Positions 6,806-47,995 of a stretch of 64,000 nucleotides of DNA are shown in pieces (within the stretch, counting starts at the first letter, position 1; every line of letters begins with the position of its first letter). Made by a program: the position numbers and the translations under genes. A model generated the notes under the pieces. It saw only the letters and a program-made list of their open reading frames with translations. It made no database searches and was not told the DNA's origin. The DNA is taken from positions 544,001 through 608,000 of the forward strand of contig CM000435.1 of NCBI GenBank assembly GCA_000165345.1, read 5' to 3'.

Positions 6806-7542
6806 ATGGTATGTCAAAAAAGTCCACTGAAGATTTTTATTATTAATTTGCAGGGTGTAGCTAAAAGAACTAGAAAATTTGCAGCGGTGAAACGCATTTT
6901 GAACCCCAATGATAGTAGAGTTAAACAGTAAGTTAACCAAGAAGTTCACTTTCAGCAAATATTTCAATTTCATGTAGAAATAAGCAAAGTAACAAAGTAG
7001 ATGCCCGCAATGATAGTAATGATAAACTAAGAGAAGTGTAAGTTTTAAAACTATTAAACCGTTCTTAATAATATTCCTTTAGGCCAAATGTACCTTCTAG
7101 CTTGTTTTTCAATTATAACAATAATTTGGGCCCTCCCTTCCACATCCTACTCGATACCAATTTTATTAACTTTTCTATACAGCATAAACTAGATATATTT
7201 AAGGGAACAATGGATTGCCTCGTAGCTAAGTGTATCCCTTGCATTACTGATTGTGTAATAGGGGAACTCGAAAAGATGGGTCACCGTTACAACTTGGCTT
7301 TGAAACTAGCTAGAGATCCCAGATTCAAACGTCTGCACTGTCTGCATAAAGGGACTTATGCGGACGATTGCATAGTGCAAAGAGTAACTGAACATAAATG
7401 TTACATAGTGGGAACGAATGATACCGAACTAAAGAGGCGCATACGTAGAATACCAGGCGTCCCAATAATGTATGTTACCAACCATAAATATTCGATTGAG
7501 AGACTACCGGAATCACTAGTCTCTGTTCCGCTGAAAAAGTAG
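6806..7542 (+). CDS. FCF1: rRNA-processing PIN-domain protein Fcf1/Utp24. The 4-exon model is join(6806..6808,6854..6927,6978..7037,7083..7542) and gives 198 aa.
   Basis: The track ORF 7102..7542 starts at a TTG and encodes only the PIN domain (FHILLDTNFINF...DCVIGELEKMG...KGTYADDCIV...KCYIVGTNDTELKRRIRRIPGVPIMYV). The conserved Fcf1 N-terminus MGVAKRTRKFAAVKRILNPNDSRVKQ lies upstream. It joins in frame through three short introns: GTATGT..CAG 45 nt, GTAAGT..TAG 50 nt and GTAAGT..TAG 45 nt. Exon 1 is the ATG alone. Total length equals human FCF1. Intron 1 is a 45-nt stop-free multiple of three, so read-through cannot be excluded from sequence alone. Confidence 0.7.
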
Positions 7543-25087: not shown

Positions 25088-26623
25088 ATGGCTGCTAATG
25101 AAAAATTTGATGTATTAAGATCTCCGCATTTTAAAAAACCAAAGTTTGGCTACGATGTCATTGAGATCTCATCTGATTCTTCTATTGAATCTAAATTAGG
25201 GGATATTTCTTCAAATAATTATCTTAAATTAGAAACACCAATTTATTTAAATAAACTCAACTTTGAAAAAAAAAATTTGAAAAATTTATCGTTTAAATCT
25301 TTGTTTGTAGTAAATGATTGCACACCTATTGAGAAATCAGTTTGGAGAATTAAACATATTTTATTTTCAAGTTATTTGGCAGATGTTAACTGGGTAATTA
25401 ATGAAATAGGGGATTCTGAGTTAATTTGTGAAAATATTGAATCCATACTTTTTGTTTCTCATGGTTTTGACAATCCACAAAATTATAAATTGAAAAATTT
25501 CAATAAAGTGAAAAACAAAAAGATTTCAACATATTCTCCATATCTGAAAGTTCCCTACGGCGTATTTCACCCAAAATTTATTTTATTAGTGTTTGAACAT
25601 CTAGTTCAGCCTAAAAAGAACTTTGTTAGGTTCGTTGTTACATCCGCCAATCTTATTCAACAGGACTGGGAGCTAAAGATACAATCAATATGGGTACAGG
25701 ATTTTTTCCATAGTATTGAAAGGAAAGATTGTGAATTCTTAGATTACTTACAAGAATTCCTAAAAAATATTCTTAATGGATCTAAACTGAAAGATTTTTG
25801 GCTGAGCAAAGTTCAAGAATTCAACTTCGAGGATGCAACCGTAAAATTAGTTGCTAGCGTTCCCGGCTATTTTTTTGGTGATGAGATGTTCATGTGGGGG
25901 CATCTTAGAGTTAGATCTTTGATAAAGAGATTTGTTTCAAAAGACCAAGATAAATCAGATGAATTAAGAGAAAAGCGAGAAAGAATTGTCCTTCAGTTTT
26001 CGAGTCTTGGAAGAATATCCGAGAAATGGTTATACACTGAGTTAGCTTCGTCGCTTTCAGAAATACCTGGAACTGAGCTTGAAATTATTTTCCCTACAGT
26101 TGAACAAGTTGTAAACTCGATAGAGGGAATTAATGGCGGTGGGTCTTTACCTGTAAAGAAAGAATATATTTGTAAACCTTGGATAAAAAAGTTACTCCAT
26201 AAATGGGGCACAGGAACTATGAAAAAGAATGCCACAGATGAGAAAGTAATACCTCACATAAAAACTTTTCTTAAATATAAAATATTTGGTAATGCTATTA
26301 AAATTATTTGGCTAGTCCAGGGAAGTTATAATTTAAGTAATGCAGCTTGGGGGCAAATACAAAAAGATGGATCTCAATTCTGCATTAGGAATTATGAGCT
26401 TGGAATATTTATTCATAAGGATCAGTTTGAATTTGAAAGGTATTTTAAACTTAATGAAGAATTTCCAAAGTTTTTTTGGAAAAGAAAAAGTAATTGTTCA
26501 TTAATTTCGGAGATAAATGCCAATCAACCTAATGTACTTTTGAATTTTCCTCTTCCTTTCAAGTTACCTCCGAAAAGATACTCGAATAGTGACCACCCTT
26601 GGAATATAGAGCTATTAATGTAA
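25088..26623 (+). CDS. TDP1: Tyrosyl-DNA phosphodiesterase 1 (PLD superfamily, two HKD-type motifs)
   Basis: First motif is FHPKFILLVFEH...TSANL. Second is IPHIKTFLKY...WLVQGSYNLSNAAWG. This matches the Tdp1 H-K-N signature pair (HTKMM.., HIKTY..SANLSKAAWG). Confidence 0.85.
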   Translation: MAANEKFDVLRSPHFKKPKFGYDVIEISSDSSIESKLGDISSNNYLKLETPIYLNKLNFEKKNLKNLSFKSLFVVNDCTPIEKSVWRIKHILFSSYLADVNWVINEIGDSELICENIESILFVSHGFDNPQNYKLKNFNKVKNKKISTYSPYLKVPYGVFHPKFILLVFEHLVQPKKNFVRFVVTSANLIQQDWELKIQSIWVQDFFHSIERKDCEFLDYLQEFLKNILNGSKLKDFWLSKVQEFNFEDATVKLVASVPGYFFGDEMFMWGHLRVRSLIKRFVSKDQDKSDELREKRERIVLQFSSLGRISEKWLYTELASSLSEIPGTELEIIFPTVEQVVNSIEGINGGGSLPVKKEYICKPWIKKLLHKWGTGTMKKNATDEKVIPHIKTFLKYKIFGNAIKIIWLVQGSYNLSNAAWGQIQKDGSQFCIRNYELGIFIHKDQFEFERYFKLNEEFPKFFWKRKSNCSLISEINANQPNVLLNFPLPFKLPPKRYSNSDHPWNIELLM

Positions 26624-27235
26624 CTTAGAGCCAATTTTAAGTTTTTCAACTTCCTTGTACAGAGTAGCCAGCTCATTCTTATATAAGCTTACTAATCTCT
26701 CATGCTTGCACTTGATATCTACGCCATTATCTTTATTATTAGGGCATTCAGAGTATTTGGTATATTTGGAGCTAATCATTTCATTTATTATAGACCTCCA
26801 TTGAAATAAACGTCTATTTTTGCTGTTCTCCAAAACAGCCGTACTTTCTGGTTTGATTTTTTCAGGTGTTTTAGCAAATCCCGAGTTTGTATCGGCTAAT
26901 TCTGAAAAGTAACTTGCACTGGAAGACCTAGACTCTTTGGGTGTTGACTCATACTTCTCTATCTTTGCTAATAATTCGTGTATTAGCTCTTCACGTCTTT
27001 GAAGTTCTTGTAGAACTCTTTCAAACTCTTTTGCTATATGATCATCATTGTTTTCCTGGAACTTTATCTCTAATAATTCATCAGGCATCCAATATTTTTC
27101 CTTATATTTAGAGCAAATCAAATCAACATTTGAAAAATTCTGATTAAAAAGCAAACCTAACTCTTTCCTTATTTTGTACTGTTCCAATATCAGTTTACCG
27201 AACCTTATATCAATTTGCTCTTGATTTAAATTCAT
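26615..27235 (-). CDS. Hypothetical coiled-coil protein (206 aa)
   Basis: ATG-initiated ORF. Its stop codon overlaps the Tdp1 stop region by 9 nt (convergent). No confident family. Confidence 0.4.
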   Translation of the reverse strand: MNLNQEQIDIRFGKLILEQYKIRKELGLLFNQNFSNVDLICSKYKEKYWMPDELLEIKFQENNDDHIAKEFERVLQELQRREELIHELLAKIEKYESTPKESRSSSASYFSELADTNSGFAKTPEKIKPESTAVLENSKNRRLFQWRSIINEMISSKYTKYSECPNNKDNGVDIKCKHERLVSLYKNELATLYKEVEKLKIGSKLH

Positions 27236-27372
27236 TTCTTACATTTTTTTTTAATAAATATTTTTTAGTACGTGCCCTCATTTTTGTACCCCAGTTCATG
27301 ATAAATGACCAAACAAGTTTCAAATAATAAACGTAGAAGAATAAAAGCTAAATTATAATAATTACTAATAAA

Positions 27373-27793
27373 ATGGTGAGTTGTCTTTGGAGAAAACAAT
27401 ATATAAGATCACTATTAAGCTAGATAGCAGGTAAATAAACTATTAAGGACATTTAGGCCTATCTTTGATAGGGTACTGGTACAGAGAATACATCCAAAAG
27501 CTGTCACGAAAAGCGGAATTTTACTTCCTGAGTCAATAAATAAGGGAGGCAAAGGTTTCTTTATGGCAAAGGTGTTGTCAACTGGAACTGGGAAAATAAA
27601 TCAGTTTACAGGTGAATATAATAAATGTCTCTTGAAACCCGGAGATACAGTGATTGTTCCAGAATATGGTGGAATTCATATTCAACAATTTTACGAAGAA
27701 GTTAATCATGGGACTTCATTAGATTTAATGGTTTATAAAGAAGAAGATATTTTGGGTATTTTTGAAAACGATAGTAAGAATAATGTCAATTAA
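27373..27793 (+). CDS. HSP10: Mitochondrial/mitosomal chaperonin Cpn10 (Hsp10). The 2-exon model is join(27373..27375,27431..27793) and gives 121 aa.
   Basis: The track ORF 27563..27793 is only the C-terminal half. Reading upstream in frame gives FRPIFDRVLVQRIHPKAVTKSGILLPESINKGG...AKVLSTGTG...PGDTVIVPEYGG, the GroES mobile-loop/roof pattern. An in-frame TAG at 27425 lies just inside the intron. ATG(27373)|GTGAGT...AG(27430)|GTAAATAAA... restores the N-terminus M-VNKLLRTFRPIFDR. Confidence 0.7.
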
Positions 27794-29459: not shown

Positions 29460-29807
29460 TCACTCTTCACCTGCTTCGTTACTAATATTGAAGTACCTAA
29501 CTTCATAGGAACCTTTGCTTGTTGCAACTACACGTAGAAAGTCTCTAATTTGTTGTTTCTTAAGGTATTTCTTAGTTAGATACTTTAGGTATCTCTTTGA
29601 CATTGGAACTTCGCTCAATACAGTAATACGACCCTTTTGGCGAGAGATCTGAATCTTCGTGCCTAGCTGTCCGCACTTACCATCCACTTTTATGCGATCA
29701 TGGAAGAACTTCTCGAGCCCAGATGCATCGATGATATTATCTTGCATAGGAGCAGTGCAGTCAACAATGAAACGTTGAGTTTTATGAGCCTTTGTTATAG
29801 GAGCCAT
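29460..29807 (-). CDS. RPL22: 60S ribosomal protein L22 (115 aa)
   Basis: [44 protein letters not shown]...[46 protein letters not shown] is a near-colinear match to L22e. The conserved start is the internal ATG at 29807; the track ORF adds 10 upstream codons. Confidence 0.9.
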
Positions 29808-47039: not shown

Positions 47040-47377
47040 CTTGGCTCTAGCCTTCTTGTAACGGCTTGCTCCGTGACCCATTTTCTAAAGAATTCCCAAA
47101 CAACAAAGAATTCAAAGTAAAGTAAACTCGCTACCAAAGTTATAAATATACGTATAGTATTGCGGCATTATATTTTTTCTTATAGCAAATTATACATATA
47201 AATGACGCTATTGGCGTCTTAAAATGTTGCGCCATACTCTAAGACAAATAGTGCGGTTTCTCAAAGCTTCGTTACGAGTTAATGTACATAATGGTTTCAT
47301 GTAAGATGTTTAGGCGTTTTACATTATTTCAAATCCGATATGCGACCGGCAAACTCTAAAGACATACAGTTTTGAAT

Positions 47378-47995
47378 ATGAATCGGGTAAAACATCGAAT
47401 TTGTTGCGACATTTTGGAAAGAGAATTACCCTTGTTATTTTATAAAAATGCTTTATCATTTGAGAGTCGGCCCACTGAAAAAAGTTCTCCAGTCCAGTTG
47501 TGCTATCCTGATCTGAGTATGACTCTTGGATTTCACCCCTATAACTTTAACATATATCAATTAAATACTGATGCTGAAGATGAAGATGTTTTCGACCGTC
47601 CTTCAATAATTATTTCCACTGAATGTAAGGAGTTTAATAATATTAGAGAAGATGTCTATCGTTGGGGAGTTTTATACTTAATATGCACAGTCTTATTGCT
47701 TGTTTATATTTTGAAAATTATTATGGAGAGTCAGCTTAATATTAATCACTTTATCGGTATTAAAATTAATAAAACAGCATTCCACATTATATGCTTTTTG
47801 CTCTCGTTTTCTCCGCTATTAGCAGTTACTGAAGGGTGCCCGTTTTTCATGATTGTCTATAAAGCTTTATTCCCATCGATGCTTACCATTATATTTGTTT
47901 ATTTTTTAAATGAGGTGTGGGACATATTATTTGTATTTCTATTTTCAGTAGCTAGATTATCTATCTCGGCTATTCAATATAAAATGGTAAGTTAA
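47378..47995 (+). CDS. Hypothetical membrane protein (about 100-aa soluble N-terminus followed by 3 TM helices)
   Basis: The track start 47372 is a TTG; the first ATG is 47378. The CDS ends ...QYKM-V-S-stop, where ATG|GTAAGTTAA is also a perfect splice donor. A 3' micro-exon is therefore possible (see findings). Confidence 0.4.
   Translation: MNRVKHRICCDILERELPLLFYKNALSFESRPTEKSSPVQLCYPDLSMTLGFHPYNFNIYQLNTDAEDEDVFDRPSIIISTECKEFNNIREDVYRWGVLYLICTVLLLVYILKIIMESQLNINHFIGIKINKTAFHIICFLLSFSPLLAVTEGCPFFMIVYKALFPSMLTIIFVYFLNEVWDILFVFLFSVARLSISAIQYKMVS

Follow-up and report, generated by a model that had tools for sequence, protein, structure and literature searches.

A predicted start-codon intron with a tandem acceptor in the Cpn10 gene of Cryptosporidium parvum

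A 76-aa open reading frame (ORF) of Cryptosporidium parvum matches the Pfam Cpn10 family over profile positions 37-92 only and lacks the N-terminal half of a GroES protein, which raises the question of where the missing half is encoded and how it is joined to the remainder. The ORF lies in a 64,000-nt stretch of DNA, here called the window, to which all positions refer; its GC content is ~30% and it is dense in long eukaryotic housekeeping ORFs (RPS3, CCDC47, Fcf1, eIF5A, Arf, EB1, Tdp1, RPL22e, eIF5, 14-3-3 and RPL35a). A preliminary description of the locus had proposed that an ATG at 27373, directly followed by GTGAGT, is spliced past an in-frame TAG at 27425 to an acceptor AG at 27429-30, and on reading the sequence every one of these coordinates proved right, as did the observation that the frame upstream of the ATG at 27563 is open back to the TAG at 27425-27. 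What it overlooked is this TAG as an acceptor, the 3' end of the intron being a tandem TAGCAG. We consider the locus very probably (about nine chances in ten) a nuclear gene for a mitochondrial-type co-chaperonin Cpn10 (Hsp10/GroES) with one start-codon intron, its splicing, acceptor, branch site and localisation all being deduced from sequence. The features of the gene, all on the plus strand, are as follows.

27373-27375, plus strand: ATG start codon, the entire coding part of the predicted exon 1; invariant in 7/7 Cryptosporidium taxa
27376-27381, plus strand: putative 5' splice site GTGAGT, directly after the ATG; conserved as GTGAGTT, invariant in 7/7 taxa
27376-27430, plus strand: predicted phase-0 intron, 55 nt with the distal CAG or 52 nt (27376-27427) with the proximal TAG
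27425-27427, plus strand: in-frame TAG, also a possible acceptor, since a 52-nt intron keeps the frame
27425-27430, plus strand: tandem (NAGNAG) acceptor TAG/CAG, with the CAG at 27428-27430 and the distal AG at 27429-30
27431-27562, plus strand: 5' part of exon 2, residues 2-45 (VNKLLRTFRPIFDRVLVQRIHPKAVTKSGILLPESINKGGKGFF), N-terminal strand and mobile loop, absent from the 76-aa ORF
27515-27532, plus strand: GILLPE loop core, within the 5' part of exon 2
27563-27793, plus strand: rest of exon 2, which is the 76-aa ORF (M46-N121) of the ORF list plus the TAA at 27791-27793

Around the proposed junction the plus strand reads aaaATG/GTGAGTtgtc...cactattaagctagaTAGCAG/GTAAATAAACTA, slashes marking the splice sites. 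Unspliced, the frame from this ATG runs into stops in all its continuations and encodes 16 aa; the downstream frame is open from 27428 to the TAA stop, with 27563 as its first in-frame ATG. Joining the ATG to 27431-27793 gives 121 aa containing FRPIFDRVLVQRI...TKSGILLPES. Splicing to the distal AG would remove 55 nt and leave a transcript reading AAAATG/GTAAATAAAC (121 aa, MVNKLL...), and splicing to the proximal AG would remove 52 nt and leave AAAATG/CAGGTAAATA (122 aa, MQVNKLL...). Over 1,621 nt the locus agrees with C. parvum CP141124.1 at every position (100% identity) and with C. hominis at all but 46, which identifies the window as C. parvum, and the spliced protein is 100% identical to the "chaperonin 10 Kd subunit, partial" of C. 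parvum Iowa II (EAK90622.1/XP_628413.1), a record that begins at the Gln encoded by 27428-30 and carries no Met. In the mechanism that we propose, exon 1 would consist of a short 5' UTR and nothing of the coding sequence but the ATG at 27373-75, and a single short spliceosomal GT-AG intron in phase 0 would split the coding sequence right after the start codon. Either splice form would give the protein back its N-terminal strand and the GILLPE mobile loop, by which Cpn10 docks on Cpn60, and the product would presumably be the lid that closes the folding cage formed by Cpn60 in the mitosome.

Is such an arrangement more than a coincidence of letters? Within the window, ATGGTGAGT occurs once in 128 kb (both strands) against 0.25 occurrences expected from shuffles, and its place is within the 137-nt gap that immediately precedes the open frame; of the three ATGs in the 5' region between the neighbouring gene and the internal ATG, only that at 27373 is followed by a consensus donor. 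We compared seven taxa, namely C. parvum, C. meleagridis (L003), chipmunk genotype I (L001), C. canis (L002) and the assemblies L004, L005 and L006, which keep the gene order Tdp1, ~206-aa ORF (minus strand), Cpn10, ~412-aa ORF (minus strand). In their alignment, ATGGTGAGTT, the ATG/GTGAGTT junction and an acceptor at the homologous column are present in 7/7 taxa, with introns of 53-55 nt. As expected of a spliceosomal GT-AG intron, all seven sequences show GTGAGT...YAG with an in-frame junction and an uninterrupted conserved ORF once the intron is removed, and as expected of a start-codon intron, the interruption is in phase 0 between codons 1 and 2 (ATG/GT at 27375/27376). Given a ATGGTGAGT unique in the window, a single ATG with a consensus donor and a junction invariant in seven taxa, chance is not a credible origin of the ATG/GTGAGT arrangement. 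Neither of the spliced junctions was found when JGI metagenome contigs were scanned for them (0 matches).

The stretch that the intron would bring into the protein behaves as coding sequence. Over the 44 codons from the acceptor to the internal ATG, variable sites among the seven taxa number 17, 11 and 33 at codon positions 1, 2 and 3, and stops crowd both other frames in every one of the seven; purifying selection acts on these 44 codons as part of a coding exon. The 121-aa protein matches Pfam Cpn10 (PF00166) with an E-value of 1.7e-14 and 54 bits (cut-off 21.1), its residues 9-111 spanning profile positions 2-92/93. Its closest solved structure is human mitochondrial Hsp10 (E 4e-13), query residue 3 falling on chain residue 3: human residues 3-45 align to the recovered N-terminal part, and in the 121-aa form they do so without a gap at the N-terminus. 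The mobile loop S29-G30-I31-L32-L33-P34-E35 aligns to human GGIMLPE, and in a 36-sequence alignment G30, I31, L33, P34 and E35 are invariant; of the 29 columns with full or almost full conservation, residues 1-45 account for 17. The loop carries the hydrophobic Cpn60-binding tripeptide (GGI[VM]L in GroES and Hsp10), so that binding to Cpn60 is predicted. An AlphaFold2 model of moderate confidence (pLDDT 72.6, low in the mobile loop and in an 8-residue insertion) adopts the GroES beta-barrel fold; in a Foldseek search of the PDB the best 36 matches are all Hsp10, GroES, Cpn20 or gp31 co-chaperonins, led by the human Hsp10 chains of 4pj1 (E 2e-9, TM 0.61-0.71). A search with a profile built from the Cryptosporidium sequences and their nearest relatives among eukaryotes brings up, for the most part, mitochondrial Hsp10 proteins of eukaryotes, Chromera and Crypthecodinium among them; among the protein search matches there was no Cpn10 of gastric Cryptosporidium (C. 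muris, C. andersoni) or of other apicomplexans.

Compared with human Hsp10, the protein of Cryptosporidium carries two insertions, one of 3 residues behind the mobile loop (G43-F45, 27557-27565) and a lineage-specific one of 8 residues ahead of the last strands (E91-L98, 27698-27721; pLDDT <50 at residues 90-96), and ends in a C-terminal tail. Bacterial GroES (E. coli, 1AON chain O) has the fold and the mobile-loop logic in common with it and is more distant, at E 3.5e-4 versus 4e-13 for human Hsp10.

These data bear directly on two other ways of reading the 5' end, to each of which we give next to no weight. The gene might lack an intron altogether and start at the ATG at 27563, the upstream frame being a relic, and this is how it stands in GenBank in the 76-aa models of C. 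hominis TU502 (XP_667056.1) and C. tyzzeri (TRY50500.1); by itself the 76-aa ORF does reach the Pfam cut-off, if barely (24.3 versus 21.1 bits). A relic would hardly have stayed open over 44 codons in seven taxa with a third-position bias, nor would it hold most of the conserved family columns and the mobile loop, without which the protein has no Cpn60-binding loop, nor would it be preceded by an invariant ATG/GTGAGTT junction. Alternatively, the first exon might be a different one, beginning at the ATG at 27305 (MTKQ) and using a donor GTTTCA at 27317 with the same acceptor to give 124 or 125 aa, the sole other in-frame GT-AG combination in the 5' region. We rejected this 5' exon on account of its weak donor and its lack of conservation: neither the ATG nor the frame is kept, chipmunk genotype I reading ATG GCC TAA and L004, L005 and C. 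canis having no equivalent, and its intron of 111 or 114 nt would contain a perfectly conserved ATG/GTGAGTT for no reason. The start-codon micro-exon, which the preliminary description had put forward as the source of a complete Cpn10, thus holds up on the Pfam span, the conserved junction, the coding pattern of substitutions and the shared ATG of the public gene models.

Those models, from C. parvum, C. hominis, C. meleagridis, chipmunk genotype I and C. canis, all start at the ATG homologous to 27373. They have 122 aa in C. parvum (QOY40558.1, WKS78929.1, WRK33412.1 and KAL5367557.1) and C. hominis (OLQ17912.1), 121 aa in C. meleagridis (POM82791.1), 118 aa in chipmunk genotype I (XP_067200201.1) and 117 aa in C. 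canis (KAJ1613619.1). In the models of C. meleagridis, chipmunk genotype I and C. canis, the intron ends at the homologue of the distal AG; in those of C. parvum and C. hominis it ends at the TAG lying 3 nt upstream, so that the protein gains a Gln at position 2. Public databases and papers already cover the Cpn10 gene and its micro-exon as well as the mitosomal chaperonin system, and the practical value of the present analysis is in annotation clean-up, as 76-aa and "partial" Cpn10 records persist. Besides the two shortened 76-aa records, start-less partials exist for C. parvum Iowa II (XP_628413.1) and C. hominis (UdeA01, CUV07226.1); the Iowa II, TU502 and C. tyzzeri models are the older ones. 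Gene calls based on ORFs always miss the Cpn60-binding half of this protein.

Which of the two acceptors C. parvum uses is the less settled part of the structure. The preliminary description had given a 55-nt intron and a 121-aa product, and this stands insofar as the distal AG is conserved and is the sole acceptor that yields a full ORF in 7/7 taxa, but current C. parvum models instead use the TAG 3 nt upstream. Splicing at the proximal NAG would be productive in just two of the seven taxa, C. parvum and C. meleagridis (the C. hominis models adopt it as well); C. canis has no such NAG, and in four taxa its use produces ATG-TAG, from CAGTAG in L004, L005 and L006 and from TAGTAG in chipmunk genotype I. 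Because the proximal AG there yields ATG-TAG, these four taxa must splice efficiently at the distal AG, and the comparative data favour the distal AG as the ancestral and universally productive acceptor. In the C. parvum lineage the motif is, by this comparison, changed such that upstream splicing would merely add Gln2.

Against this stands the possibility, to which we assign a little under even odds, that within the same micro-exon structure C. parvum actually or mainly uses the proximal TAG (27425-27), with a 52-nt intron, a 122-aa protein and the 55-nt form minor or unused. The 122-aa product is found in four records of C. parvum and two of C. hominis, in which the gene spans 421 nt, equivalent to 27373-27793, and the introns of the C. 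parvum re-annotation as a whole are stated to be 100% supported by RNA-seq (PMC8744675), an annotation to which some of these records may belong. Scanning models, in which the first usable AG past the branch site tends to win (PMC2875228), also point to the proximal site, and its use would be harmless in the C. parvum lineage, where it inserts CAG for Gln. The annotators nevertheless disagree on one and the same sequence, the 121-aa C. meleagridis model taking the distal AG of an ATAGCAG identical to that of C. parvum while the 122-aa C. parvum and C. hominis models take the proximal one. The ATG-TAG outcome in four taxa further means that an intron of this geometry has to be spliced efficiently at the distal site. 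Only ~9 nt separate the proximal AG from the best candidate for a branch site, and it is the 121-aa form that aligns gap-free to the human N-terminus. C. parvum may use either acceptor or both, and we put the odds on which predominates at roughly even. The 3-nt ambiguity affects only the exact N-terminus of a presumably mitosomal matrix protein, an N-terminus that probably carries the import signal.

The spacing of the two acceptors can be considered together with the conserved parts of the intron.

27400-27419, plus strand: intron blocks T.T.TAAG (27400-27407) and (C)TATTAAG (27412-27419), with columns invariant or nearly invariant in seven taxa

The invariant alignment columns in the intron are T61, T63, T65, A66, A67 and G68, and A79 and G80. 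We take (C)TATTAAG to be the best candidate for the branch site, a suggestion drawn from conservation and position: its invariant A at 27418 precedes the proximal AG by 9 nt and the distal AG by 12 nt. The motif is no exact match to either yUnAy or CTRAY, and the Cpn10 intron yielded no branch site that fits a standard consensus; the comparison drew on the few introns of the window. In human cells, the distance from branch site to AG influences the choice between NAGNAG acceptors (PMC2875228), and the passing over of a good YAG 3 nt upstream in four taxa would fit a proximal AG that lies too close to the branch site. The intron as a whole is about as conserved as the flanking exon. TATTAA-like motifs also occur in introns 1 and 3 of the Fcf1 gene in the window and may reflect a branch-site preference of Cryptosporidium.

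In several respects the gene resembles systems described elsewhere. Like the NAGNAG acceptors of other organisms (PMC2699507, PMC2875228), the Cpn10 site has two AGs 3 nt apart, each after a pyrimidine (TAGCAG at 27425-27430, CAGTAG or TAGTAG in four other taxa), with predicted products one codon apart; unlike the usual case, use of the upstream AG in the related Cryptosporidium species would lead to a stop right after the ATG and not to a one-residue indel. Start-codon introns were described as an over-represented class in short, conserved, Lys-rich proteins (Nielsen and Wernersson 2006, PMC1626468), and the Cpn10 intron likewise would lie in phase 0 right after the ATG, in the gene of a protein that is short, conserved and Lys-rich and has no signal peptide. 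Vertebrates, arthropods, fungi and plants were the groups covered in that study, whose abstract names no apicomplexans. Within the family itself, the first exon of human HSP10 is stated to hold only the first codon (PMC5006179, citing Hansen et al. 2003). Human HSPE1 and the Cryptosporidium gene belong to the same family, and their products are collinear at the N-terminus from residue 3 of the 102-aa human chain. HSPE1 stands head to head with HSPD1 (HSP60) under a common promoter, whereas the divergent neighbour of the Cryptosporidium gene is a 206-aa ORF that is unrelated to it and matches no Pfam family.

In the Hsp10 gene of the ascomycete Hyaloscypha bicolor (JAJTUR010000002.1, L012 301-455), the start codon is also followed by an intron, ATG/GTAAGT with 148 nt ending in ...gaacag, codon 2 being TCT and the protein continuing STALKSIK.... 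By contrast, Chlamydomonas incerta has no start-codon intron, its exon 1 encoding residues 1-38, and none is present in the model of the dinoflagellate Effrenium voratum; Cpn10 is uninterrupted in an Emiliania contig, although that contig may be cDNA-derived. Over the sampled taxa the start-codon intron appears patchy, which would fit either ancient retention or repeated independent gain at a favoured site. One could go further and suppose that an ancient Hsp10 start-codon intron, common to human HSPE1 and Hyaloscypha, was kept in an intron-poor genome, that the tandem acceptor acts through ATG-TAG as an unproductive-splicing throttle on chaperonin expression, and that the throttle was disarmed by a change from CAGTAG to TAGCAG in the lineage of C. 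parvum, C. hominis and C. meleagridis, perhaps leaving two isoforms that differ by Gln2; we regard this scenario as speculative and improbable.

The preliminary description had also read the gene as implying an organelle chaperonin system. This is true, yet it was established for Cryptosporidium before: the genus reportedly encodes mitochondrial Cpn60 and Cpn10 orthologues and is without plastid Cpn60 and Cpn20 (PMC3064897), and Cpn60 and mtHsp70 are described as localised to the C. parvum mitosome (PMC6282951, for Cpn60 citing Riordan 2003). Cpn10 itself is presumably mitosomal; the published localisations are those of Cpn60 and Hsp70 (PMC6282951). No Cpn60 was found in the Pfam scan, which took in larger ORFs of the window but not all of its ORFs. 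The structure of the Cpn10 gene leaves knowledge of the Cryptosporidium mitosome unchanged.

Upstream of the start codon, the sequence that Cpn10 shares with its divergent neighbour has a GC content of 0.226, as against 0.328 in the exon.

27236-27372, no strand assigned: divergent intergenic region of 137 nt, between the start of the minus-strand 206-aa ORF (27235) and the Cpn10 ATG
27272-27293, no strand assigned: conserved block GTGCCCTCA(N5)GTACCCCA, with GTAC.CC invariant in seven taxa while the remaining spacer drifts

The region presumably holds both promoters and the Cpn10 5' UTR, a promoter function suggested by its position, and the block at 27272-27293, in which G57, T58, A59, C61 and C62 of the seven-taxon alignment are invariant, is a candidate shared promoter element. 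A scan for bacterial-type promoters and terminators, irrelevant for a eukaryote, gave results below the shuffle expectation and was set aside. Gene packing around the locus is extreme: the Tdp1 ORF (25088-26623, plus strand) and the 206-aa ORF (26615-27235, minus strand) overlap tail to tail by 9 nt (26615-26623), and only 40 nt separate the Cpn10 stop from the end of the minus-strand ORF that follows.

A second ATG-only first exon had been announced for the window, and we locate it in the Fcf1/Utp24 gene.

6806-7542, plus strand: Fcf1/Utp24 gene with an ATG-only first exon, ATG at 6806-08 followed by GTATGT
6809-6853 (45 nt), 6928-6977 (50 nt) and 7038-7082 (45 nt), plus strand: Fcf1 introns in a four-exon model

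The four-exon model gives 198 aa that align residue 1 to residue 1 with human FCF1 (E 6e-83), of which calls based on ORFs see the last exon only (7102-7542). Regular-expression scans for ATG/GT micro-exons returned the Cpn10 site and false leads and missed Fcf1 because of its short exon 2; the gene was found by reading the sequence. With two ATG-only first exons in 64 kb, gene finders for Cryptosporidium should model such exons. Among the false leads, ATGGTAAGT at 29683 (minus strand) was rejected because it lies inside the intronless coding sequence of RPL22e, and RPL35a was rejected as a micro-exon gene because it has a normal ATG at 55728. Another copy of ATGGTAAGT, at 47984-47992 (plus strand), falls at the very end of a hydrophobic 207-aa ORF (47372-47995, no Pfam match), where it may act as a genuine donor for one more small exon, the apparent stop then not being the true one.
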